This document shows positions 25,969 through 41,338 of a stretch of 64,000 nt of DNA, piece by piece. This DNA is from Escherichia coli. Its GTDB lineage: Bacteria; Pseudomonadota; Gammaproteobacteria; Enterobacterales; Enterobacteriaceae. The position numbers and the translations under genes were made by a program. The notes below the pieces were generated by a model, which was given only the letters and a program-made list of their open reading frames with translations, was not told the origin of the DNA and did not search any database. The DNA is taken from NCBI RefSeq assembly GCF_050920415.1, contig NZ_CP169309.1; one strand, written 5' to 3'. Each line of letters opens with the position of its first letter. The first letter of the stretch is position 1.

Positions 25969-27138
25969 TTATATTTCATTTAAAAGATCGTAATCATACG
26001 TATATTCTTTGCTAATAAAACGACACTCGTTGAAGCTAAATTCATCGTCTGAAAAGGAATTGTCAACAGAATCTCTCTCTTCCTCCAGGCTATTATCTGA
26101 AAGCAAGTCGTTTGAGTTAGTGTAATCTAGGTTGTAATCGACAGTATAATTAATTTCTGGATCGGTTTGGTAATCATTTTTTTTGACGCAATCATATTCT
26201 TCAATAATTTTGTCGATATAATCATATGCTTTTTCTAATGAGAAGTTTTTCATCTCTGGTAATTTAACTTTGCTCAAATAATTATTAATTTTTGAGGAAT
26301 TTTTATATATGCTTTTTGTTAATTCTTTTTCTAATTTGTCTGTTATATTTGCTGTTGGTATGGATTTTATAATCGCATATCTCATGATTTTTAATTGATC
26401 TTCGGTTAAATCTCCAAGCTCATTTAAACAACTTTCGACAAAGTTGATTTTTTCTCTGGAATAATCATCGCTGATACTTGTTAACGCTGGGGTGATTTTT
26501 AATAAAGAATTCCATGAGATAGTACCATTGTGTGTCGAACGCATAAAATTTATATTGTACATATTGGTTTTAGTAAACTTTGTTGCAAACAATGTAAAGG
26601 GATCTAAAGTCGCGTAAGCCATATGTTTATTTGAAAAATCATAACCAGTTAAATCGACGTTATGCAAGTCCAGATAGGATAAATCTATTACGTCGCCTGC
26701 TCCAGAGCTAAAGATTACATTTAGTCTTCTGATTTCATTATAAATTTCCTTTAATGAACAATTTATGTTCATGATGTCTGTTGAAATTTTTTTGTTATTT
26801 AACGGTTCACAAATTATAAGTTCGCAAGTATTGTCTGATCGTTGCGTTATTTGGGCATTATAACCTAAAAAGTCTATGCGAAGAGACGAGTTATTATAAA
26901 GTATTACATTTTTTAAGTATGCTAATTCTTGTTGAAAATCACCATCGATAATACATGTTCCACCTGGTTGCAACGCGCAGATTAACGTGAGCATTTGATT
27001 AGAAGTCTGTTTTAGTTTTACTACACCTGGTGCTAGTGCTTTGAGGTCATTTATTATGGGGGTTTCAGGAATGTCATTCATTTTTATACGTACTAAATCA
27101 TTACCTAAGTCATTACCTATTGATGAAACCGGGAACAT
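25969..27138 (-). CDS. yhaC: Uncharacterized protein YhaC (pentapeptide-repeat-like central region, acidic D/Y/E-rich C-terminus)
   Basis: 389-aa ORF in a strongly AT-rich segment; synteny between rnpB and tdcR. Confidence 0.75.
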   Translation of the reverse strand: MFPVSSIGNDLGNDLVRIKMNDIPETPIINDLKALAPGVVKLKQTSNQMLTLICALQPGGTCIIDGDFQQELAYLKNVILYNNSSLRIDFLGYNAQITQRSDNTCELIICEPLNNKKISTDIMNINCSLKEIYNEIRRLNVIFSSGAGDVIDLSYLDLHNVDLTGYDFSNKHMAYATLDPFTLFATKFTKTNMYNINFMRSTHNGTISWNSLLKITPALTSISDDYSREKINFVESCLNELGDLTEDQLKIMRYAIIKSIPTANITDKLEKELTKSIYKNSSKINNYLSKVKLPEMKNFSLEKAYDYIDKIIEEYDCVKKNDYQTDPEINYTVDYNLDYTNSNDLLSDNSLEEERDSVDNSFSDDEFSFNECRFISKEYTYDYDLLNEI

Positions 27139-27159
27139 TATTTTATCCTTTTTAAATAA

Positions 27160-27729
27160 TCAATGAGAATCATGATTAAAATGATCTGGTGAAAAAAAGA
27201 GAATTTGCCAACAATCTGAAACATTGTCAGTTTTATTAAAATGATTAAATTCCGTTAAGATAACTTCTTTTTGCGTGAACTTTGCGCAAAACTTAAAAAT
27301 TGTCTCCTTGATACACTCCAGATCTTTTCTATTGATGGCTGAACAAGTACATTTTTCGCCAAAAGGTGAAAATGTGCCTACATCTAAAGTTTGTATTATA
27401 TAATCATCATTTACTCCTGTAGAAATATCTATGATGAATGGACTTCTATTTTCCGGTTGGATTCGGATCATTACAGAAGAAACATCACCTTTATAGACAT
27501 TCAATGCAGTAATCGCAGATAATATTCTCCGCAATTCATTGCTTATGCTGTAAATTTCATTAACGTCATTTGTCGATATAATCTCGGCAAATTTTATTTT
27601 TACCTTCCAATAATCAATGTTTCTATTATAAGTGTTAACAGTTTCGTACATTGGTGGTATCGAAGGGGGTAAAAAATGTGAAACCGAATAACCTTTCATT
27701 GATGCCTGCCTTGTCTTCATGACAAACAA
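27160..27729 (-). CDS. yhaB: Uncharacterized protein YhaB
   Basis: 189-aa ORF 21 bp downstream of yhaC, AT-rich; synteny. Confidence 0.7.
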   Translation of the reverse strand: MFVMKTRQASMKGYSVSHFLPPSIPPMYETVNTYNRNIDYWKVKIKFAEIISTNDVNEIYSISNELRRILSAITALNVYKGDVSSVMIRIQPENRSPFIIDISTGVNDDYIIQTLDVGTFSPFGEKCTCSAINRKDLECIKETIFKFCAKFTQKEVILTEFNHFNKTDNVSDCWQILFFSPDHFNHDSH

Positions 27730-28488: not shown

Positions 28489-29427
28489 ATGAGCACTATT
28501 CTTCTTCCGAAAACGCAGCATCTGGTAGTCTTTCAGGAAGTCATTAGAAGTGGCTCTATCGGCTCGGCTGCAAAAGAATTAGGGTTAACTCAACCCGCCG
28601 TCAGTAAAATCATTAACGATATTGAAGACTATTTTGGTGTGGAATTAGTGGTGCGGAAAAATACCGGTGTAACATTAACACCTGCCGGTCAATTGTTACT
28701 CTCCCGTTCCGAATCCATTACCCGTGAAATGAAAAATATGGTTAATGAGATAAGCGGTATGTCTTCTGAGGCGGTGGTGGAAGTCTCATTCGGTTTTCCT
28801 TCATTGATTGGTTTTACTTTTATGTCCGGGATGATCAACAAGTTCAAAGAGGTGTTTCCGAAAGCGCAGGTTTCTATGTATGAAGCGCAACTGTCTTCGT
28901 TCTTACCGGCAATCCGCGACGGTCGACTGGATTTTGCGATTGGTACGTTAAGCGCAGAAATGAAGCTTCAGGATTTACATGTTGAGCCGCTGTTCGAGTC
29001 CGAGTTTGTGTTGGTAGCCAGTAAGTCCCGAACATGCACCGGCACCACCACGCTGGAGTCGTTGAAGAACGAACAGTGGGTGTTGCCACAAACCAATATG
29101 GGGTACTACAGCGAGCTGCTCACCACGTTACAAAGAAATGGCATCAGTATTGAAAACATCGTTAAAACCGACTCAGTTGTGACAATTTATAATCTTGTTC
29201 TCAATGCTGATTTCTTAACTGTAATTCCTTGTGATATGACATCACCTTTTGGTTCAAATCAATTTATTACTATTCCGGTTGAAGAAACATTACCTGTGGC
29301 ACAATATGCCGCGGTATGGTCGAAAAATTATCGTATTAAAAAAGCAGCATCGGTTTTGGTGGAATTAGCCAAAGAGTATTCATCTTATAATGGGTGTAGA
29401 CGAAGGCAATTAATTGAAGTTGGTTAG
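28489..29427 (+). CDS. tdcA: LysR-family transcriptional activator TdcA
   Basis: 312-aa ORF, N-terminal HTH (LysR type). Confidence 0.9.
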   Translation: MSTILLPKTQHLVVFQEVIRSGSIGSAAKELGLTQPAVSKIINDIEDYFGVELVVRKNTGVTLTPAGQLLLSRSESITREMKNMVNEISGMSSEAVVEVSFGFPSLIGFTFMSGMINKFKEVFPKAQVSMYEAQLSSFLPAIRDGRLDFAIGTLSAEMKLQDLHVEPLFESEFVLVASKSRTCTGTTTLESLKNEQWVLPQTNMGYYSELLTTLQRNGISIENIVKTDSVVTIYNLVLNADFLTVIPCDMTSPFGSNQFITIPVEETLPVAQYAAVWSKNYRIKKAASVLVELAKEYSSYNGCRRRQLIEVG

Positions 29428-29525
29428 TTATTTGTTTTTATTTAAACATAAATAATCCACCTGTCTGTTTTGCAGGTGTCGGTTACGGTTACCTACATAT
29501 TTAATTCAGGCTAAGAGGTTTTATA

Positions 29526-30515
29526 ATGCATATTACATACGATCTCCCGGTTGCTATTGATGACATCATTGAAGCAAAACAACGACTGGCTGGGCGAATT
29601 TATAAAACAGGCATGCCTCGCTCCAACTATTTTAGTGAACGTTGCAAAGGTGAAATATTCCTCAAATTCGAAAACATGCAGCGTACCGGTTCATTTAAAA
29701 TTCGTGGCGCATTTAATAAATTAAGTTCACTGACCGATGCGGAAAAACGTAAAGGTGTAGTGGCCTGCTCTGCGGGCAACCATGCGCAAGGGGTCTCGCT
29801 CTCCTGCGCGATGCTGGGTATCGACGGTAAAGTGGTGATGCCAAAAGGCGCGCCGAAATCCAAAGTAGCGGCAACGTGCGACTACTCCGCTGAAGTTGTT
29901 CTGCACGGCGACAACTTTAACGACACTATCGCTAAAGTGAGCGAAATTGTCGAAACGGAAGGCCGTATTTTTATCCCACCTTATGATGATCCGAAAGTGA
30001 TTGCCGGTCAGGGAACGATTGGCCTGGAAATTATGGAAGATCTCTATGATGTCGATAATGTGATTGTGCCAATTGGCGGTGGCGGTTTAATTGCTGGTAT
30101 TGCGGTAGCGATTAAATCAATTAACCCGACTATTCGTGTTATTGGCGTACAGTCAGAAAACGTTCACGGCATGGCGGCTTCTTTCCACTCCGGAGAAATA
30201 ACCACGCACCGAACTACCGGCACCCTGGCGGATGGTTGTGATGTCGCCCGCCCGGGTAATTTAACTTACGAAATCGTTCGTGAATTAGTCGATGACATCG
30301 TGCTGGTCAGCGAAGACGAAATCAGAAACAGTATGATTGCCTTAATTCAGCGCAATAAAGTCGTCACCGAAGGCGCAGGCGCTCTGGCATGTGCTGCATT
30401 ATTAAGCGGTAAATTAGACCAATATATTCAAAACAGAAAAACCGTCAGTATTATTTCCGGCGGCAATATCGATCTTTCTCGCGTCTCTCAAATCACCGGT
30501 TTCGTTGACGCTTAA
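29526..30515 (+). CDS. tdcB: Catabolic L-threonine/L-serine dehydratase TdcB (PLP-dependent)
   Basis: 329-aa ORF with PLP lysine motif SFKIRGA. Confidence 0.92.
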
Positions 30516-30533
30516 TTAATTCGTTGAGGATAG

Positions 30534-31868
<1,335 letters not shown>

Positions 31869-31893
31869 TCCGTAACTCAGGATGAGAAAAGAG

Positions 31894-33102
31894 ATGAATG
31901 AATTTCCGGTTGTTTTGGTTATTAACTGTGGTTCGTCTTCGATTAAGTTTTCCGTGCTCGATGCCAGCGACTGTGAAGTATTAATGTCAGGTATTGCCGA
32001 CGGTATTAACTCGGAAAATGCATTCTTATCCGTAAATGGGGGAGAGCCAGCACCGCTGGCTCACCACAGCTACGAAGGTGCATTGAAGGCAATTGCATTT
32101 GAACTGGAAAAACGGAATTTAAATGACAGTGTGGCCTTAATCGGCCACCGTATCGCCCACGGCGGCAGTATTTTTACCGAGTCTGCCATTATCACCGATG
32201 AAGTCATTAATAATATCCGTCGCGTTTCTCCACTGGCACCCCTGCATAATTACGCCAATTTAAGTGGTATTGAATCGGCGCAGCAATTATTCCCGGGCGT
32301 AACTCAGGTGGCGGTATTTGATACCAGTTTCCACCAGACGATGGCGCCGGAAGCTTATTTATACGGCCTGCCGTGGAAATATTATGAAGAGTTAGGTGTA
32401 CGCCGTTATGGTTTCCACGGCACGTCGCACCGCTACGTTTCCCAGCGCGCGCATTCTTTGCTGAATCTGGCGGAAGATGACTCCGGCCTGGTCGTGGCGC
32501 ATCTTGGCAATGGCGCGTCAATCTGCGCAGTTCGCAACGGTCAGAGTGTTGACACTTCAATGGGAATGACGCCGCTGGAAGGCTTGATGATGGGTACCCG
32601 CAGTGGTGATGTCGACTTCGGGGCGATGTCCTGGGTCGCCAGCCAAACCAACCAGAGCCTGGGTGACCTGGAACGCGTAGTGAATAAAGAGTCGGGATTA
32701 TTAGGTATTTCCGGTCTTTCTTCGGATTTACGTGTTCTGGAAAAAGCCTGGCATGAAGGTCACGAACGCGCGCAACTGGCAATTAAAACCTTTGTTCACC
32801 GAATTGCCCGTCATATTGCCGGACACGCAGCCTCATTACGTCGCCTGGATGGAATTATATTCACCGGCGGAATAGGAGAAAATTCAAGTTTAATTCGTCG
32901 TTTGGTCATGGAGCATTTGGCTGTATTAGGCGTAGAGATTGATACAGAAATGAATAACCGCTCTAACTCCTTTGGTGAGCGAATTGTTTCTAGTGAAAAT
33001 GCGCGTGTCATTTGCGCCGTTATTCCGACTAACGAAGAAAAAATGATTGCTTTGGATGCCATTCATTTAGGCAAAGTTAACGCGCCCGCAGAATTTGCAT
33101 AA
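31894..33102 (+). CDS. tdcD: Propionate kinase TdcD (acetate/propionate kinase family)
   Basis: ORF 31882..33102 trimmed to [16 protein letters not shown]... Confidence 0.9.
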
Positions 33103-33135
33103 TTTAGTTGAAGTATTGTAGAGAGATTATTTTTC

Positions 33136-35430
33136 ATGAAGGTAGATATTGATACCAGCGATAAGCTGTACGCCGACGCATGGCTTGGCTTTAAAGGTAC
33201 GGACTGGAAAAACGAAATTAATGTCCGCGATTTTATTCAACATAACTATACACCGTATGAAGGCGATGAATCTTTTCTCGCCGAAGCGACGCCAGCCACC
33301 ACGGAATTGTGGGAAAAAGTAATGGAAGGCATCCGTATCGAAAACGCGACTCACGCGCCGGTTGATTTCGATACTAATATTGCCACCACCATTACCGCTC
33401 ATGATGCGGGATATATTAACCAGCCGCTGGAAAAAATTGTTGGCCTGCAAACAGATGCACCATTAAAGCGCGCGCTGCATCCGTTCGGCGGTATTAATAT
33501 GATTAAAAGCTCATTCCACGCATATGGCCGTGAAATGGACAGTGAATTTGAGTACATCTTTACCGATCTGCGTAAAACCCATAATCAGGGCGTATTTGAT
33601 GCGTACTCACCGGATATGCTGCGCTGCCGTAAATCGGGTGTACTGACTGGTTTGCCAGACGGTTATGGTCGTGGGCGTATTATCGGTGACTACCGCCGCG
33701 TAGCGCTTTACGGCATCAGTTATCTGGTACGTGAACGCGAACTGCAATTTGCCGATCTCCAGTCTCGCCTGGAGAAAGGCGAAGATCTCGAAGCCACTAT
33801 CCGTCTGCGTGAGGAGCTGGCGGAACATCGTCGTGCGCTGTTGCAGATTCAGGAAATGGCGGTGAAATACGGTTTTGATATCTCCCGTCCGGCGCAGAAT
33901 GCGCAGGAAGCGGTGCAGTGGCTCTACTTCGCTTACCTGGCGGCAGTGAAATCACAGAACGGCGGCGCAATGTCTCTTGGCCGTACGGCATCGTTCCTCG
34001 ATATCTACATTGAGCGCGACTTTAAAGCTGGCGTGCTCAATGAGCAGCAGGCACAAGAACTGATCGACCACTTCATTATGAAGATCCGTATGGTGCGCTT
34101 CCTGCGTACGCCGGAATTTGATTCGCTGTTCTCTGGCGACCCGATCTGGGCGACGGAAGTGATCGGTGGGATGGGGCTGGACGGTCGTACGCTGGTGACC
34201 AAAAACTCTTTCCGTTATCTGCACACCCTGCACACTATGGGGCCAGCACCGGAACCAAACCTGACCATTCTGTGGTCGGAAGAATTACCGATCGCCTTCA
34301 AAAAATATGCCGCACAGGTGTCTATCGTCACCTCTTCCTTGCAGTATGAAAACGACGATCTGATGCGTACTGACTTCAACAGCGACGATTACGCGATTGC
34401 CTGCTGCGTTAGCCCGATGGTGATTGGTAAGCAAATGCAGTTCTTTGGTGCACGCGCTAACCTGGCGAAAACGCTGCTCTACGCAATTAACGGCGGGGTG
34501 GACGAGAAGCTGAAGATTCAGGTCGGCCCAAAAACAGCACCGCTGATGGACGACGTGTTGGACTACGACAAAGTGATGGACAGCCTCGACCACTTTATGG
34601 ACTGGCTGGCGGTGCAGTACATCAGCGCGCTGAACATCATCCACTACATGCACGACAAGTACAGCTACGAAGCCTCGCTGATGGCGCTGCATGATCGTGA
34701 TGTCTATCGCACTATGGCGTGTGGCATCGCGGGCCTGTCAGTGGCGACGGACTCCCTGTCTGCCATCAAATATGCCAGCGTGAAACCAATCCGTGACGAA
34801 AACGGCCTGGCGGTGGATTTCGAAATCGACGGTGAATATCCGCAGTACGGCAACAACGACGAGCGCGTAGACAGTATTGCCTGCGACCTGGTTGAACGCT
34901 TTATGAAGAAAATTAAAGCGCTGCCAACCTATCGCAACGCCGTCCCTACCCAGTCGATTCTGACTATCACTTCTAACGTGGTGTACGGGCAGAAAACCGG
35001 TAACACGCCGGACGGTCGTCGCGCCGGAACACCGTTCGCACCGGGCGCTAACCCGATGCACGGTCGTGACCGTAAAGGTGCCGTGGCCTCGCTGACGTCG
35101 GTGGCGAAACTGCCGTTCACTTACGCCAAAGACGGTATCTCGTACACCTTCTCAATTGTCCCGGCGGCGTTGGGCAAAGAAGATCCAGTACGTAAAACCA
35201 ACCTTGTCGGCCTGCTGGATGGGTATTTCCACCACGAAGCGGATGTCGAAGGCGGTCAACACCTCAACGTCAACGTAATGAATCGGGAAATGCTGCTGGA
35301 TGCCATCGAGCACCCGGAAAAATATCCTAACCTGACAATCCGTGTCTCTGGCTACGCCGTGCGCTTCAACGCACTGACCCGTGAACAGCAACAAGATGTT
35401 ATTTCACGTACTTTTACCCAGGCGCTCTGA
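33136..35430 (+). CDS. tdcE: 2-ketobutyrate formate-lyase / pyruvate formate-lyase TdcE (glycyl radical enzyme)
   Basis: 764-aa ORF with C-terminal glycyl-radical motif (RVSGYAV). Confidence 0.92.
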
Positions 35431-35443
35431 CGCCGGAGGATGT

Positions 35444-35833
35444 ATGAAAAAGATTATCGAAACGCAACGTGCCCCAGGCGCAATCGGCCCTTATGTTCAG
35501 GGTGTTGATTTAGGCAGCATGGTCTTCACCTCCGGGCAAATTCCGGTGTGCCCGCAGACAGGTGAGATCCCGGCTGATGTGCAAGATCAGGCGCGTTTAA
35601 GCCTCGAAAACGTCAAAGCGATCGTGGTTGCTGCCGGGCTGAGCGTGGGTGATATCATCAAGATGACCGTGTTCATCACCGATCTGAATGATTTTGCCAC
35701 CATCAATGAAGTCTATAAGCAGTTCTTCGATGAGCATCAGGCGACCTACCCGACCCGGAGCTGTGTGCAGGTCGCGCGTTTGCCGAAAGATGTGAAGCTG
35801 GAAATTGAAGCCATCGCAGTACGTAGTGCGTAA
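35444..35833 (+). CDS. tdcF: Enamine/imine deaminase TdcF (RidA/YjgF family)
   Basis: ORF 35381..35833 trimmed to MKKIIETQRAPGAIGPY with GGAGGA RBS. Confidence 0.9.
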   Translation: MKKIIETQRAPGAIGPYVQGVDLGSMVFTSGQIPVCPQTGEIPADVQDQARLSLENVKAIVVAAGLSVGDIIKMTVFITDLNDFATINEVYKQFFDEHQATYPTRSCVQVARLPKDVKLEIEAIAVRSA

Positions 35834-35904
35834 AGCCTCGTGAGCGGGACGGTCGCAAGGTCGTTCCGCTCCACTTCACTGAACGGCAATCCGAGGGTGT
35901 GGAT

Positions 35905-37269
35905 ATGATTAGTGCATTCGATATTTTCAAAATTGGGATTGGACCCTCCAGTTCGCATACCGTGGGGCCGATGAATGCCGGAAAAAGTTTTATTGATCGG
36001 CTGGAAAATAGCGGCTTATTAACCGCGACGAGCCATATTATGGTCGATCTGTACGGGTCGTTGTCACTGACGGGCAAAGGCCATGCCACGGATGTCGCCA
36101 TCATCATGGGACTAGCAGGAAACAGTCCGCAGGATGTTGTTATTGATGAGATCCCTGCATTTATTGAGTTAGTGACGCGCAGCGGGCGGTTGCCGGTGGC
36201 TTCTGGGGCGCATGTTGTTGATTTTCCTGTAGCAAAGAACATTGTTTTCCATCCTGAAATGTTGCCTCGTCATGAGAACGGGATGCGGATTACTGCCTGG
36301 AATGGGCCGAAAGAGCTATTAAGCAAAACTTACTACTCAGTCGGTGGCGGATTTATCGTTGAAGAAGAACACTTCGGTCTGTCGCACGCTGTCGAAACCC
36401 TCGTACCTTACGATTTTCACTCAGCAGGTGAACTGCTGAAAATGTGTGATTACAACGGCCTGTCTATTTCTGGCCTAATGATGCACAACGAGCTGGCGCT
36501 GCGCAGCAAAGCGGAAATTGATGCCGGGTTTGCCCGTATCTGGCAAGTGATGCACGACGGCATTGAACGCGGGATGAATACCGAAGGCGTGCTGCCAGGA
36601 CCGCTTAATGTGCCTCGTCGTGCCGTTGCGTTGCGTCGCCAGCTGGTTTCCAGCGATAACATCTCTAACGATCCGATGAACGTCATCGACTGGATCAACA
36701 TGTACGCGCTGGCAGTGAGTGAAGAAAACGCAGCCGGTGGGCGCGTAGTAACAGCGCCGACCAATGGGGCGTGCGGCATTATTCCGGCTGTGCTGGCTTA
36801 TTATGATAAGTTCCGTCGCCCAGTAAATGAGCGGTCGATTGCCCGCTATCTACTGGCAGCGGGGGCTATTGGCGCGCTGTATAAAATGAACGCTTCCATC
36901 TCTGGCGCGGAAGTCGGCTGTCAGGGGGAAATTGGCGTGGCCTGTTCAATGGCGGCGGCAGGGTTAACTGAACTACTGGGCGGCAGTCCGGCGCAGGTAT
37001 GCAATGCGGCGGAAATTGCGATGGAGCATAACCTTGGGCTGACCTGCGATCCGGTTGCCGGACAGGTACAAATCCCGTGCATTGAACGTAATGCCATTAA
37101 TGCCGTGAAAGCAGTAAACGCTGCGCGGATGGCGATGCGCCGCACCTCGGCACCGCGTGTTTCACTCGATAAAGTGATCGAGACGATGTATGAAACCGGC
37201 AAAGATATGAACGATAAATACCGCGAAACATCACGCGGAGGACTGGCCATTAAAGTGGTCTGCGGTTGA
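35905..37269 (+). CDS. tdcG: L-serine dehydratase TdcG (Fe-S type)
   Basis: ORF 35899..37269 trimmed to MISAFDIFKIGIGPSSSHT. Confidence 0.9.
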   Translation: MISAFDIFKIGIGPSSSHTVGPMNAGKSFIDRLENSGLLTATSHIMVDLYGSLSLTGKGHATDVAIIMGLAGNSPQDVVIDEIPAFIELVTRSGRLPVASGAHVVDFPVAKNIVFHPEMLPRHENGMRITAWNGPKELLSKTYYSVGGGFIVEEEHFGLSHAVETLVPYDFHSAGELLKMCDYNGLSISGLMMHNELALRSKAEIDAGFARIWQVMHDGIERGMNTEGVLPGPLNVPRRAVALRRQLVSSDNISNDPMNVIDWINMYALAVSEENAAGGRVVTAPTNGACGIIPAVLAYYDKFRRPVNERSIARYLLAAGAIGALYKMNASISGAEVGCQGEIGVACSMAAAGLTELLGGSPAQVCNAAEIAMEHNLGLTCDPVAGQVQIPCIERNAINAVKAVNAARMAMRRTSAPRVSLDKVIETMYETGKDMNDKYRETSRGGLAIKVVCG

Positions 37270-37293
37270 CATTGCTGTCAGCTTTCATCCTTG

Positions 37294-37319
37294 GGTGCAC
37301 AAATGTGCACCTTTTTTTT
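37294..37319 (+). terminator. Rho-independent terminator after tdcG
   Basis: GGTGCACAAATGTGCACC hairpin followed by T8. Confidence 0.85.
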
Positions 37320-37543
37320 GTGATCTGCCGCAAATAGAGAATGAATATTCTCTTGCGGTTAATTTAGTAGAAAATTCTTATCCATCTCCGTTATTTCAAA
37401 GTCTTGATTGTGAAGATTTTCTCTGACCTCGCGCGTATCATTTCCTTATTCTAATAACTCGCCTGCAAAAATGTAGACCGCATATCGCCTTGATGCGGCT
37501 CGGAAAAAAATAATAAGCCCTACAAAATATTGAGCGAGAAATT

Positions 37544-38875
37544 ATGGAAATTGCATCGAATAAAGGCGTCATTGCAGACGCTTCGACCCCGGCAGGTCGT
37601 GCTGGAATGAGTGAGAGCGAGTGGCGAGAAGCGATCAAATTCGACAGTACTGACACCGGCTGGGTGATTATGAGTATCGGGATGGCGATTGGCGCAGGGA
37701 TTGTTTTTCTCCCGGTGCAGGTCGGTTTGATGGGATTGTGGGTATTTTTGCTCTCATCGGTGATTGGTTACCCAGCAATGTATCTGTTTCAGCGGTTGTT
37801 TATTAATACGCTGGCAGAATCACCAGAGTGTAAAGATTACCCCAGCGTCATCAGCGGTTATTTAGGTAAAAACTGGGGCATCCTGTTAGGTGCGCTCTAT
37901 TTCGTGATGCTGGTGATCTGGATGTTCGTCTATTCCACTGCCATCACCAACGATAGTGCTTCCTACCTGCATACCTTCGGCGTGACGGAAGGGTTGCTGT
38001 CAGACAGTCCCTTTTATGGTCTGGTACTGATTTGCATTCTGGTGGCGATCTCCTCACGCGGCGAGAAATTGTTATTCAAAATTTCGACGGGGATGGTGCT
38101 GACCAAGCTGCTGGTGGTTGCGGCGCTGGGCGTGTCGATGGTCGGAATGTGGCATCTGTACAACGTCGGTTCGCTGCCGCCGCTGGGGCTGCTGGTGAAA
38201 AACGCCATTATTACGCTGCCGTTTACCCTGACGTCGATTCTGTTTATCCAGACGTTAAGCCCGATGGTGATCTCTTATCGCTCACGGGAAAAATCCATTG
38301 AAGTGGCGCGGCATAAAGCATTGCGGGCAATGAATATCGCGTTTGGCATTTTGTTTGTCACCGTCTTTTTCTACGCCGTGTCGTTCACGCTGGCGATGGG
38401 ACATGACGAAGCGGTAAAAGCCTACGAGCAGAATATTTCCGCGCTGGCAATTGCCGCACAGTTTATTAGCGGTGACGGCGCAGCGTGGGTGAAAGTGGTC
38501 AGCGTCATTCTTAATATTTTTGCCGTAATGACTGCATTCTTTGGTGTCTATTTAGGTTTTCGCGAAGCAACGCAAGGGATCGTAATGAACATCCTGCGTC
38601 GTAAGATGCCCGCCGAGAAGATTAACGAAAATCTCGTTCAGCGCGGCATCATGATTTTCGCCATTTTGCTGGCCTGGAGCGCCATCGTACTGAACGCACC
38701 GGTGTTGAGCTTCACCTCTATCTGTAGCCCGATTTTCGGCATGGTAGGGTGCCTGATCCCGGCGTGGCTGGTTTACAAAGTACCGGCATTGCACAAATAC
38801 AAAGGGATGTCTCTGTACCTGATTATCGTCACTGGTTTGTTGCTTTGTGTATCTCCGTTCCTGGCATTTTCTTGA
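37544..38875 (+). CDS. cyuP: Putative cysteine/serine transporter CyuP (YhaO)
   Basis: 443-aa multi-pass ORF paralogous to TdcC; synteny with cyuA. Confidence 0.88.
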   Translation: MEIASNKGVIADASTPAGRAGMSESEWREAIKFDSTDTGWVIMSIGMAIGAGIVFLPVQVGLMGLWVFLLSSVIGYPAMYLFQRLFINTLAESPECKDYPSVISGYLGKNWGILLGALYFVMLVIWMFVYSTAITNDSASYLHTFGVTEGLLSDSPFYGLVLICILVAISSRGEKLLFKISTGMVLTKLLVVAALGVSMVGMWHLYNVGSLPPLGLLVKNAIITLPFTLTSILFIQTLSPMVISYRSREKSIEVARHKALRAMNIAFGILFVTVFFYAVSFTLAMGHDEAVKAYEQNISALAIAAQFISGDGAAWVKVVSVILNIFAVMTAFFGVYLGFREATQGIVMNILRRKMPAEKINENLVQRGIMIFAILLAWSAIVLNAPVLSFTSICSPIFGMVGCLIPAWLVYKVPALHKYKGMSLYLIIVTGLLLCVSPFLAFS

Positions 38876-38902
38876 TTTACCTGAAATTTTAAGGTTTTTA
38901 TT

Positions 38903-40213
38903 ATGTTTGATTCGACTTTAAATCCGTTATGGCAGCGTTACATCCTCGCCGTTCAGGAGGAAGTAAAACCGGCGCTGGGATGTACTGAACCGATTTCACT
39001 GGCGCTGGCGGCGGCGGTTGCTGCGGCAAAACTGGAAGGTCCGGTTGAACGTGTAGAAGCCTGGGTTTCGCCAAATCTGATGAAGAACGGTCTGGGCGTC
39101 ACCGTTCCTGGCACGGGAATGGTGGGACTGCCGATTGCGGCGGCGCTGGGCGCGTTAGGTGGGAATGCCAATGCCGGGCTGGAAGTGCTGAAAGACGCAA
39201 CTGCGCAGGCAATTGCCGATGCCAAAGCACTGCTGGCGGCGGGGAAAGTCTCAGTTAAGATCCAGGAACCTTGCGATGAAATCCTCTTCTCACGCGCCAA
39301 AGTCTGGAACGGTGAGAAGTGGGCGTGTGTCACCATCGTCGGTGGGCATACCAACATTGTGCATATTGAGACGCACAATGGCGTGGTGTTTACCCAGCAG
39401 GCCAGTGTAGCAGAGGGCGAGCAAGAGTCGCCACTGACGGTGCTCTCCAGAACGACGCTGGCTGAGATCCTGAAGTTCGTCAATGAAGTGCCGTTTGCGG
39501 CGATCCGCTTTATTCTCGATTCTGCGAAGTTAAATTGTGCGTTATCGCAGGAAGGCTTGAGCGGTAACTGGGGGCTGCATATTGGCGCGACGCTGGAGAA
39601 ACAGTGTGCACGCGGTTTGCTGGCGAAAGATCTCTCTTCATCCATTGTGATTCGTACCAGCGCGGCATCCGATGCGCGTATGGGCGGCGCTACGCTTCCG
39701 GCAATGAGTAACTCCGGCTCGGGTAACCAGGGGATCACTGCAACAATGCCTGTGGTGGTGGTAGCAGAACACTTCGGGGCCGATGATGAACGGCTGGCGC
39801 GTGCGCTGATGCTTTCGCATTTGAGCGCGATTTACATCCATAACCAGTTACCGCGTTTGTCTGCGCTTTGTGCCGCAACGACCGCAGCAATGGGGGCCGC
39901 CGCCGGGATGGCATGGCTGGTGGATGGGCGTTATGAAACCATCTCGATGGCGATCAGCAGTATGATCGGCGATGTCAGCGGCATGATTTGCGATGGTGCG
40001 TCCAACAGCTGCGCGATGAAGGTTTCGACCAGTGCTTCGGCTGCGTGGAAAGCAGTGTTAATGGCGCTGGATGATACCGCTGTGACCGGTAATGAAGGTA
40101 TTGTGGCGCATGATGTTGAGCAGTCGATTGCCAACCTGTGTGCGCTGGCAAGCCATTCGATGCAGCAAACGGATCGGCAGATTATCGAGATTATAGCGAG
40201 CAAGGCCAGATAA
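38903..40213 (+). CDS. cyuA: L-cysteine desulfidase CyuA (YhaM)
   Basis: 436-aa ORF, UPF0597/serine-dehydratase-like family. Confidence 0.88.
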
Positions 40214-40232
40214 ACACCTGGTTTTGGGTATC

Positions 40233-40337
<105 letters not shown>

Positions 40338-40345
40338 ACCTGTCT

Positions 40346-40510
40346 TTACGCGGTAGCTTCATCCTCGGCTAAACGCGTTTCAGCATCCGCGACAATGGCT
40401 TCCAGTTCGCTCAACATCTCTTCATAGCCAAAATTATTGGCGGTGCGAGCCGGTTCCTTCGCCACCACGGGCTTCACCGGCTGACGCTTTTTGGCCGATT
40501 TTTTACTCAT
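40346..40510 (-). CDS. yhaL: Small protein YhaL (54 aa)
   Basis: Manually translated minus-strand ORF MSKKSAKKRQPVKPVVAKEPARTANNFGYEEMLSELEAIVADAETRLAEDEATA (below the ORF-track length cutoff); GGAG RBS. Confidence 0.7.
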   Translation of the reverse strand: MSKKSAKKRQPVKPVVAKEPARTANNFGYEEMLSELEAIVADAETRLAEDEATA

Positions 40511-41234: not shown

Positions 41235-41338
41235 AATTCTTGACCTCTCTTTACTTCCTTTTATGGTAAGGGGCTGGACGCTACATTGTTAGCCAGATAT
41301 TCTGCCCGGTATGTTCAAATTTCCTGAATGAGAACGAA

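Follow-up and report, generated by a model that had tools for sequence, protein, structure and literature searches.

The junction of the tdcABCDEFG and cyuPA (yhaOM) operons of Escherichia coli K-12 is reportedly also described in Loddeke 2017 and Shimada 2016. The adjacency of the two units was published by Zhou & Imlay in 2022 (PMC9040844), and discrete promoters as well as a dependence on CyuR and Crp have been reported for the K-12 locus (PMC9040844). The transporter CyuP was shown to transport cysteine and also D/L-serine (PMC9040844, PMC4699771), and the homology between CyuA and the serine dehydratases (LSD) was published in a 2025 structure paper (PMC12647591). The sdaC-sdaB genes resemble cyuPA in that the gene for a permease of the STP subfamily is directly followed by a gene for an SDH_alpha enzyme, L-serine deaminase II, but the substrate is serine for sdaC-sdaB and cysteine for cyuPA. 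Archaeal CyuA genes, unlike cyuPA, have no transporter partner and play a role in sulfur mobilisation (PMC12647591, PMC9040844).

In this study, the same junction was analysed in a stretch of 64,000 nucleotides (the window), which is E. coli chromosome. Over 4.6 kb the sequence matches E. coli NZ_CP169399.1 with 100% identity, and only 15-19 of approximately 5,400 genomes show at least 99% identity over this region, the strain belonging to a somewhat divergent E. coli lineage. The RefSeq annotation of the identical record gives the gene order tdcF, tdcG, cyuP, cyuA, yhaL. The tdcABCDEFG operon extends over 28489..37269 on the plus strand according to the ORF list, the RefSeq annotation and NCBIfam equivalog matches for TdcC and TdcG. 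The ORF list places tdcA at 28489-29427, tdcB at 29526-30515, tdcC at 30537-31868, tdcD at 31882-33102, tdcE at 33136-35430, tdcF at 35444-35833 and tdcG at 35905-37269, all on the plus strand. Downstream on the same strand are cyuP (yhaO/dlsT; 37544..38875), encoding an importer of the STP/HAAAP family (annotation, TIGR00814, BLASTP to TdcC and SdaC), and cyuA (yhaM; 38903..40213), encoding a [4Fe-4S] L-cysteine desulfidase (SDH_alpha, match to 9he0/9fsl).

The gene identities of the original prediction, which had been made from the sequence, agree with the ORF list, the annotation and the profile matches. Genes and gene order are the same as in K-12, with no difference at the gene level, and the equivalent K-12 spacer carries an identical palindrome. 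The locus is the well-known junction at which the operon for threonine/serine fermentation (tdc) meets that for cysteine fermentation (cyuPA). Since earlier publications cover how the locus is organised, which regulators act on it and how its enzymes are related, the gene level adds nothing new, and the sole new element of the locus is the leader hairpin built on this palindrome.

Terminator of the tdc operon

The spacer between the tdcG stop codon and the cyuP start codon measures 274 bp. A terminator scan and fold energy located the intrinsic terminator of the tdc operon at 37293..37320 on the plus strand, where the stem-loop GGGTGCAC-AAAT-GTGCACCT is followed by T8. The stem (37293-37312) comprises 8 pairs, 5 of them G-C, with a fold energy of -13.3 kcal/mol. 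The element thus has the features of a Rho-independent terminator, a G+C-rich stem-loop with a directly adjoining U-run at the 3' end of an operon, and the alignment shows that other genera keep a hairpin and T-run here with differing stem sequences. A terminator separating the two units had been predicted, and the stem and T8 behind tdcG confirm it. The 224 bp originally given for the region upstream of cyuP hold for the portion after the terminator, but not for the full spacer from stop to start.

Relationship of CyuP and CyuA to the Tdc and Sda proteins

TdcC and CyuP had been proposed to be paralogues, and their BLASTP alignment supports this (E 5e-30, 25% identity across 436 aa). With SdaC, CyuP has slightly more in common (29% identity, E 3e-39), whereas TdcC and SdaC share 50% identity. 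TIGR00814 was matched by both TdcC (572.8 bits) and CyuP (504.3 bits, profile positions 1-397 of 397, below the curated cut-off of 525.8), and no match to Pfam Trp_Tyr_perm was detected in CyuP at E<=0.01. Given its significant whole-length similarity to the characterised STP subfamily members TdcC and SdaC, CyuP is assigned to the same serine/threonine-permease subfamily.

Comparison of TdcG with CyuA gave no BLASTP match. Pfam SDH_alpha (PF03313; gathering cut-off 26.4) was found in both TdcG (309.7 bits) and CyuA (198.8 bits), whereas SDH_beta (PF03315), the N-terminal domain of single-chain L-serine dehydratases, was found only in TdcG (188.7 bits); CyuA matched neither SDH_beta in Pfam nor an NCBIfam serine dehydratase. 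At the profile level, CyuA and TdcG accordingly appear to have only the Fe-S catalytic domain SDH_alpha in common, so that their earlier description as two serine-dehydratase-like Fe-S enzymes applies to SDH_alpha but not to SDH_beta. CyuA shows full-length likeness to Methanococcus maripaludis CyuA (PDB 9he0/9fsl) and MJ1025. The alignment to the solved L-cysteine desulfidase 9he0_A (E 6.7e-28) spans residues 17-434, and ALGCTE with the catalytic Cys/Glu dyad (GCTE), LS..C and ICDG....CA.K with the three cluster cysteines all line up; the dyad and cluster residues of CyuA are named in PMC12647591.

It is sdaC-sdaB that encodes the genuinely close paralogues of TdcC and TdcG, TdcG sharing 73% identity with SdaB. 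Both the TdcC-SdaC and the TdcG-SdaB identities are far above any similarity of CyuP or CyuA, the latter having no BLASTP-level similarity to the deaminases.

Origin of the tdc-cyuPA adjacency

The original prediction suggested that the two units arose by module duplication and divergence. The order of the genes was compared in 80 genomes. Although cyuA follows cyuP in 76 of the 80, the 74 enterobacterial loci with upstream coverage have tdcG (29 loci), tdcE without tdcG (8 loci) or no tdc gene (37 loci) upstream of cyuP, and only some of the Enterobacteriaceae have the tdc/cyuPA adjacency. Within the tdc operon, tdcC and tdcG are not adjacent but separated by three genes. A search of representative proteins retrieved distant CyuP-clade transporters (35-48% identity) that adjoin Cys_Met_Meta_PP, Aminotran_1_2 or asparaginase genes, none of them homologous to cyuA. 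CyuA, for its part, occurs without CyuP in Clostridioides (C. difficile; PMC5767170) and in archaea, including methanogens (PMC9040844), and reportedly arose in Terrabacteria and reached Proteobacteria by horizontal transfer (PMC12647591).

A tandem duplication from tdc to cyu is not supported, as the partners are not each other's closest paralogues and the adjacency fails to accompany the genes everywhere. Duplication as a local event is made unlikely by the nearest paralogues SdaC and SdaB being encoded elsewhere and by the 37 of 74 loci with no tdc gene upstream, and further by the missing beta domain of CyuA, the unrelated enzymes beside CyuP-clade transporters and the occurrence of CyuA without CyuP in other phyla.

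A more ancient version of the event would derive both units from the duplication of a single ancestral "permease plus Fe-S dehydratase" module. In its favour, TdcC is homologous to CyuP and TdcG to CyuA, the Cyu proteins take the outgroup position relative to their Tdc and Sda counterparts in both families, and K-12 has an adjacent pair of this kind in sdaC-sdaB. Since the trees ((TdcC,SdaC),CyuP) and ((TdcG,SdaB),CyuA) are congruent, topology alone is compatible with a transporter-plus-dehydratase pair having duplicated in the very distant past. Yet a module of this kind is improbable in view of CyuA living without CyuP in Clostridioides and methanogens, its reported origin in Terrabacteria, the pairing of CyuP-clade transporters with non-homologous enzymes, the three genes between tdcC and tdcG, the lack of a beta domain in CyuA and the absence of the adjacency from half of the loci. 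Most likely, the tdc and cyu units came together in an ancestor that gave rise to part of the Enterobacteriaceae, and neither was duplicated from the other. Judged from the alignments and profiles, the similarity between them is real but old; their adjacency would be a secondary juxtaposition and hence no evidence of duplication.

Candidate control sites upstream of cyuP

A conserved alignment block at 37320..37335 on the plus strand contains a CRP-like site, TGTGATCTGCCGCAAA, which agrees with 8/10 consensus positions and is considered a candidate only. In other genera it reaches 9/10, as TGTGA-N6-TCAAA or TCTCA, and in most Enterobacteriaceae genera it is found approximately 225-239 nt before the ATG, regardless of the upstream gene. 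Four AGARAAT boxes are located at 37336-42 (+), 37347-53 (-), 37369-75 (+) and 37416-22 (-), which amounts to 4 in 87 bp (37336..37422) as compared with 25 in the other approximately 64 kb. Among the 6-mers in the region before cyuP, AGAAAA/TTTTCT (18/21 genera) and GAGAAA/TTTCTC (19/21) recur most. A requirement of cyuPA for Crp has been demonstrated (PMC9040844), and CyuR has been placed in the tdcG-yhaO spacer by SELEX and ChIP-exo (PMC6237786, PMC11408624). The AGARAAT boxes are candidate half-sites for CyuR, an activator of the AsnC/Lrp type. The 23-bp CyuR motif GAAwAAATTGTxGxxATTTsyCC (PMC11408624) had no match within 3 mismatches in the 64 kb, its best spacer matches carrying 8-9 mismatches. 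According to published EMSA on approximately 300 bp, YhaJ also binds this spacer. No YhaJ box TCA-N7-TGA (PMC5031710) was found in the spacer; the only related sequence there is TCA-N6-TGA at 37396-37407, and a true TCA-N7-TGA box occurs in the yhaK/yhaJ spacer at 41315.

A candidate -10 hexamer TATCAT, which reads TATGAT in the majority of the other genera, was recognised at 37436..37441 on the plus strand within the nearly invariant block GTAT(G/C)AT, and a start near A37448 is predicted from it. A consensus scan of the plus strand of the spacer found no full sigma-70 promoter and no canonical -35, as expected for a promoter that depends on an activator.

A conserved hairpin in the putative cyuP leader

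The palindrome noticed earlier, CCGCAT-ATCGCCTTG-ATGCGG with ATCGCCTTG as loop, is present at 37478-37498 and identical in K-12. As a feature of a single sequence it is not beyond chance: one or more perfect 6-bp inverted repeats with loops of 3-12 nt occurred in 48% of spacer shuffles, and the whole window has on average 1.16 such repeats per 274 bp. Folding z-scores of the individual sequences are modest as well, with a mean of -1.38 and -0.91 for the window.

Between species, a hairpin at 37474..37503 on the plus strand, with the palindrome as its core, is seen by covariation, RNAalifold, a covariance model and folds. In alignment A1, 83.5% of the cells pair, compared with 24-40% when the partner is slid. 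Both sides change in 7/10 pairs, and the covariation score was reached by 0/500 shuffles, a control that ignores phylogeny and applies to a 10-pair structure drawn by hand from the sequences. The hairpin core was predicted independently by RNAalifold. The covariance model R1 gave one match per locus, always at the position of the hairpin, but with default filters its matches were limited to leaders of the Escherichia/Citrobacter type and that of Pseudocitrobacter, and the Enterobacter-type group was therefore analysed separately. This group has a different stem with the same loop, 85.5% pairing versus 24-52% when slid, and GC:7/AU:6 at one pair. Thus, in A1, by RNAalifold and in the Enterobacter-type group, compensatory changes preserve the base pairs between species. 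A hairpin centred on ATCGC was seen in the minimum-energy folds of 54 leaders, and hairpins around ATCGC persist even in the distant genera Photorhabdus and Proteus, where the stems are unrelated.

The loop ATCGC and the flanking CCTGC are nearly invariant amid otherwise diverged non-coding DNA. Of 59 distinct upstream sequences, nearly all share the CCTGC block (37462..37466, plus strand; 12-20 nt upstream of the hairpin) unchanged. Behind the hairpin, conserved blocks at 37505..37543 on the plus strand comprise the A-rich tract AAAAAAATAATAA, the C/A-rich tract CCCTACAAAA and AAGCGAG before the ATG, the last being the putative ribosome-binding region.

The palindrome might be a functionless inverted repeat that arose by chance in an A/T-rich spacer, the covariation stemming from relatedness and the choice of alignment. 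About one 6-bp inverted repeat is expected in a spacer of this size, the fold of the window itself is unremarkable, the shuffles ignore phylogeny and the structure was self-drawn. However, the slid controls retain the relatedness and still fall far below the observed pairing, an independent group with a different stem agrees, RNAalifold found the core unaided, ATCGC hairpins on unrelated stems reach Photorhabdus and Proteus, and the loop and CCTGC are nearly invariant. A chance origin is thus very unlikely.

The original prediction regarded the palindrome as a possible regulator site. On this reading, a dimeric protein that regulates cyuPA, such as CyuR, YhaJ or another factor, would use it as its DNA operator. 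The element's position is conserved, and both CyuR and YhaJ bind somewhere in the spacer, as seen by SELEX and ChIP-exo and by EMSA, respectively. The counts of G-U versus A-C (31 versus 19) do not settle the strand, and this asymmetry is not decisive for RNA. On the other hand, the best CyuR match overlapping the palindrome has 8/23 mismatches, and no TCA-N7-TGA box lies there. The arms vary freely between and within genera (CCGC/GCGG, CTGC/GCAG, TTGC/GCAA, CTCAT/ATGAG, CCGCG/CGCGG, ACCGTAT/ATACGGT, GCTGCA/TGCAGC), as does the length of the stem, whereas the invariant part is the asymmetric loop. Since the arm sequences are not conserved but covary, a folded strand is indicated rather than an operator contacted by protein. 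A position downstream of the conserved -10-like block would also be odd for an activator. Taken together, the palindrome is unlikely to be an operator, and the repeated AGARAAT boxes and the upstream CRP-like site are the better candidates.

The palindrome is most likely the core of a conserved, previously undescribed RNA hairpin in the 5' leader of cyuP, with a covarying stem and a loop, (C/U)AUCGC, that does not vary across Enterobacterales. The leader reading follows from its position, which is downstream of every candidate start and leaves approximately 45 nt to the start codon; that the hairpin lies within the transcript is suggested by the CRP-like site and the conserved -10-like block (37436-41). 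A search of Rfam 15 at a permissive threshold gave no match over 37474-37503 even at E<=10, and only spurious sub-threshold ones elsewhere.

Structured stem-loops of enterobacterial 5' leaders include a stabilising type, such as the ompA 5' hairpin, and types that present a loop as target of sRNAs or RNA-binding proteins. The cyuP element resembles them as a short covarying hairpin between promoter and ribosome-binding site with an A-rich tract after it. It differs from known leader elements in having no Rfam match and in its loop, AUCGC, which is not the GGA motif of CsrA. The best predicted RyhB pairing is in the coding region and not at the hairpin. RyhB has been suggested as a regulator of cyuP in a review (PMC7154689). 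Unrestricted duplex folding with RyhB produced meaningless long duplexes, and the best windowed site (37590-37604, coding region, -19.9 kcal/mol) was no better than 9% of shuffles. GcvB was dismissed as a partner, with a weak hand pairing to the C/A-rich tract and no literature link found. A minus-strand terminator was rejected likewise, as on that strand the T-run precedes the stem and nothing converges there, and so was a leader peptide, whose ATGTAG at 37472-77 reads ACGTAG in K-12.

More tentatively, the invariant CCUGC, the covarying stem with its invariant (C/U)AUCGC loop and the A-rich tract could form an Enterobacterales-wide RNA motif that a specific partner, RNA or protein, would recognise to exert post-transcriptional control, a possibility that we rate below an even chance.

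Model and implications

Based on the observed anatomy, homologies, synteny and covariation, we consider it probable that the locus consists of two separately transcribed, juxtaposed operons of old, non-local homology, and that the palindrome is the core of a leader hairpin. In the proposed model, two operons for anaerobic amino-acid fermentation stand head to tail. Transcription of tdc would end at the intrinsic terminator, and cyuPA would be transcribed from its own activator-dependent promoter inside the 274-bp spacer, at the predicted position. The published requirements for cyuPA are CyuR with cysteine, and Crp, and YhaJ binds the region too. The AGARAAT and CRP-like boxes would function at this promoter, whereas the hairpin, if it is RNA of the predicted strand, would act after the start of transcription, on stability, on translation or through a trans-acting partner.

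When E. coli produces H2S from cysteine anaerobically, cyuPA is its main source, and links of the operon to antibiotic tolerance and virulence have been published. CyuR, and the direct or indirect action of Crp, may be sought at the AGARAAT boxes and the CRP-like site, and the palindrome makes a better candidate for a leader RNA element than for a CyuR site. If the RNA motif proves true, it would add to the transcriptional control of cysteine fermentation and H2S by CyuR and Crp, responding, for example, to iron, Fe-S status or anaerobiosis.

Gene content of the tdc-cyuPA junction

The gene-level content of the junction between the threonine/serine fermentation operon tdc and the cysteine importer and desulfidase genes cyuPA is already known. 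The cyuPA genes lie immediately 3' of tdc, the two promoters are discrete, cysteine induces cyuPA and leaves tdc unaffected, and the region was suggested to be possibly mobile as an amino-acid fermentation locus (Zhou and Imlay, PMC9040844). In the window, tdcA-tdcG (28489-37269) are followed by cyuP (yhaO, 37544-38875), cyuA (yhaM, 38903-40213), yhaL, yhaK and yhaJ. The 274-bp spacer between the tdcG stop and the cyuP start contains an intrinsic terminator with a stem of eight pairs (37293-37312, -13.3 kcal/mol) and a T8 run. The 4.6 kb around the junction match E. coli strain MFDS1022581 with 100% identity and are found in 5,353 of the 5,426 complete genomes of the species; the matching record is annotated in the order tdcF, tdcG, cyuP, cyuA, yhaL. 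K-12 MG1655 has the identical gene order, and its spacer carries no annotated feature. Because gene order and terminator are both present, the predicted arrangement of tdcABCDEFG, terminator and cyuPA is confirmed.

Of about 5,400 complete E. coli genomes, only 15-19 reach at least 99% identity to 35800-40400. CyuP is 100% identical to its counterparts in Escherichia albertii NBRC 107761 and Escherichia sp. MOD1-EC7003, and the strain may represent an uncommon E. coli lineage. CyuP has 443 residues in this strain and K-12 and 425, 416 or 407 in many other E. coli records, and the choice of its start codon (37544-37600) varies between annotations. The matching RefSeq record gives two minus-strand ORFs of 389 and 189 residues between rnpB and tdcR (25969-27729) no name beyond hypothetical protein.

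Relationship of the Tdc and Cyu proteins

TdcC and CyuP are paralogous as predicted, with full-length homology in BLASTP (25% identity, E 5e-30), and both match the serine/threonine-transporter profile TIGR00814, CyuP at 504 bits being slightly under the cut-off of 525.8. The proposal that TdcG and CyuA are both serine-dehydratase-like holds for the common SDH_alpha domain (309.7 and 198.8 bits, respectively), but BLASTP did not align the two proteins and SDH_beta is present in TdcG alone. In a full-length alignment of CyuA with the Methanococcus L-cysteine desulfidase of known structure (9he0/9fsl, E 7e-28), the cluster cysteines and GCTE dyad are kept.

The original prediction also had the two units arise by module duplication and divergence. 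When the window proteins were compared with the products of K-12 sdaC-sdaB, identities were 50% for TdcC-SdaC, 73% for TdcG-SdaB and 29% for CyuP-SdaC, against 25% for CyuP-TdcC. The near relatives of tdcC and tdcG thus lie at a separate locus, sdaC-sdaB, and by sequence CyuP and CyuA rank as deep outgroups to the Tdc/Sda members. Among 80 genomes with a CyuP relative, cyuA follows cyuP in 76. Upstream sequence was sufficient at 74 loci: tdcG lies 5' of cyuP in 29, tdcE but neither tdcF nor tdcG in 8 (Enterobacter, Lelliottia), and no tdc gene in 37 (Buttiauxella, Pluralibacter, Yersinia, Edwardsiella, Proteus and others). Screening 1.8 billion cluster representatives gave a small CyuP clade with identity down to about 35%. 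Its 48%-identity transporter is followed by a Cys/Met PLP enzyme gene, with cysteine dioxygenase and LysR genes close by, the 44% member by a class I/II aminotransferase gene and the 35% member by an asparaginase gene; these loci look like alternative transporter-plus-enzyme catabolic pairs. C. difficile has CdsB/CyuA and lacks a CyuP orthologue (PMC5767170), an archaeal CyuA enzyme has no transporter partner (PMC9040844), and CyuA was inferred to originate in Terrabacteria and then to spread horizontally (PMC12647591).

Duplication as a local event is thus not supported, in view of the sda paralogues, the 37 loci without tdc and the unrelated partner enzymes. Together with the occurrence of CyuA without CyuP, these observations argue that transporter and enzyme were assembled independently; the pair would later have come to lie next to tdc in a single lineage of enterobacteria. 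Duplication of a permease-dehydratase pair in the very distant past, giving rise to both units, would fit the single shape shared by the two family trees, and is very unlikely beside independent assembly.

Three further features of these loci were observed. In Enterobacter and Lelliottia, tdcE is the last tdc gene and cyuP follows directly. At one locus, cyuPA lies 5' of tdcA-tdcB. CyuP is better conserved than CyuA in 76 of 76 loci having both: identity to the window proteins averages 91% for CyuP and 76% for CyuA, and in Proteus about 84% and 60%.

The cyuP upstream region

A nearly invariant GTAT(G/C)AT block (37435-41; TATGAT in most genera) lacks a -35 element, as expected of an activator-dependent promoter, and would place the transcription start near A37448. 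Other conserved blocks are TTGTGA-N-TTTTTCTC (37408-24) and TAGAAAAT (37368-75). Directly 3' of the tdcG terminator lies the CRP-like TGTGATCTGCCGCAAA (37320-37335; TGTGA-N6-TCAAA-type, 8-9/10 conserved), which holds a distance of about 225-239 nt to the cyuP ATG in most Enterobacteriaceae whichever gene is upstream, tdc or not. Crp is needed for cyuPA, whether by direct or by indirect action (PMC9040844); this candidate site could explain the dependence.

CyuR, the AsnC/Lrp-type cysteine-responsive activator, binds within the tdcG-yhaO spacer in genomic SELEX and ChIP-exo (PMC6237786, PMC11408624). Within 87 bp (37336-37422) there are four AGARAAT boxes, against 25 in all other parts of the window together, and two of the four form the inverted repeat AGAGAAT-GAAT-ATTCTCT (37336-53). 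The boxes recur 5' of cyuP in most genera, where the most recurrent hexamers are AGAAAA/TTTTCT (18/21 genera) and GAGAAA/TTTCTC (19/21). We infer that these AT-rich boxes are candidate CyuR half-sites. The LysR-type regulator YhaJ shifts a ~300-bp fragment 5' of yhaO (PMC4699771). The cyuP spacer contains TCAAAGTCTTGA (TCA-N6-TGA, 37396-37407), and a canonical YhaJ-type TCA-N7-TGA (TCAAATTTCCTGA) lies in the yhaK/yhaJ spacer (41315-41327).

The palindrome proposed as a regulator site, CCGCAT-ATCGCCTTG-ATGCGG, is present at 37478-37498 and identical in K-12. By itself it is unremarkable: 48% of shuffled spacers have such an inverted repeat, and the folding z-score of the segment is -0.91. Neither the CyuR motif nor the YhaJ box matches at the palindrome, and its arms vary but stay complementary; it is not a good operator candidate.

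A conserved hairpin in the putative cyuP leader

In an alignment of the 300 nt 5' of cyuP (59 distinct sequences), the arms are unconserved in sequence and keep their complementarity: CCGC/GCGG in Escherichia and some Citrobacter, CTGC/GCAG and TTGC/GCAA in other Citrobacter and Pseudocitrobacter, TCGC/GCGA and CTCAT/ATGAG in Enterobacter and Lelliottia, CCGCG/CGCGG in Superficieibacter, ACCGTAT/ATACGGT in one enterobacterium and GCTGCA/TGCAGC in Photorhabdus. The loop is constant as (C/T)ATCGC, and so is a CCTGC block 12-20 nt 5' of the hairpin. In a gap-free alignment of 26 sequences, 83.5% of the cells of a 10-pair helix are paired, versus 24-40% with the 3' partner slid by 1-3 columns, and 7 of the 10 pairs changed on both sides. 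The covariation score of 0.310 (shuffles 0.191 +/- 0.017) was reached by 0 of 500 shuffles, and RNAalifold predicted the four core pairs unguided. The 13 Enterobacter-type leaders, a separate group with a different stem, had 85.5% of cells paired versus 24-52% when slid, one pair being GC in 7 and AU in 6 with zero unpaired cells. A covariance model from the first group gave one match per locus, always at the hairpin, and no other match in the 64-kb window; minimum-energy folds of 54 leaders put a hairpin centred on ATCGC. Freely varying but complementary arms around an invariant, asymmetric loop argue for a folded single strand rather than an operator for a dimeric protein.

The hairpin lies about 45 nt 5' of the cyuP start codon and downstream of both candidate starts, one near 37448 and the other, which assumes a class II CRP-like site, near 37369; it is therefore placed, from these putative starts, in the cyuP mRNA leader. 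The G-U/A-C asymmetry of 31 versus 19 is no proof of strand. An A-rich tract, a C/A-rich tract and a conserved AAGCGAG follow 3'. A start-stop mini-ORF just 5' of the hairpin (ATGTAG, 37472-37477) reads ACGTAG in K-12 and most relatives and was rejected as not conserved. At three Proteus loci a T-run follows the CATCGC hairpin about 60-100 nt before cyuP, terminator-like, where Enterobacteriaceae have an A-run; the Proteus hairpin and T-run may be an attenuator.

Possible role of the hairpin

Overall, the original prediction is partly supported, local duplication and the palindrome as operator being the parts that found no support. The conserved leader hairpin is the sole new element, modest in scope; it has no match in Rfam and no published description in the literature searched. 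A review lists cyuP as a suggested target of RyhB (PMC7154689), and such control would suit an operon that includes an Fe-S enzyme gene. The best predicted duplex falls within coding sequence (37590-37604, cyuP codons ~16-20, with RyhB nt 32-47), and its -19.9 kcal/mol shows no significant advantage over shuffles (p about 0.09). The loop UCGC is complementary to GCGA of the ribosome-binding region, a pairing that covariation is unable to test because both are invariant. That the hairpin truly functions as a motif read by a specific partner is possible, if somewhat doubtful. Our working view is that it would act post-transcriptionally in the cyuP mRNA, as an element for stability or translation or as a docking site for a partner.
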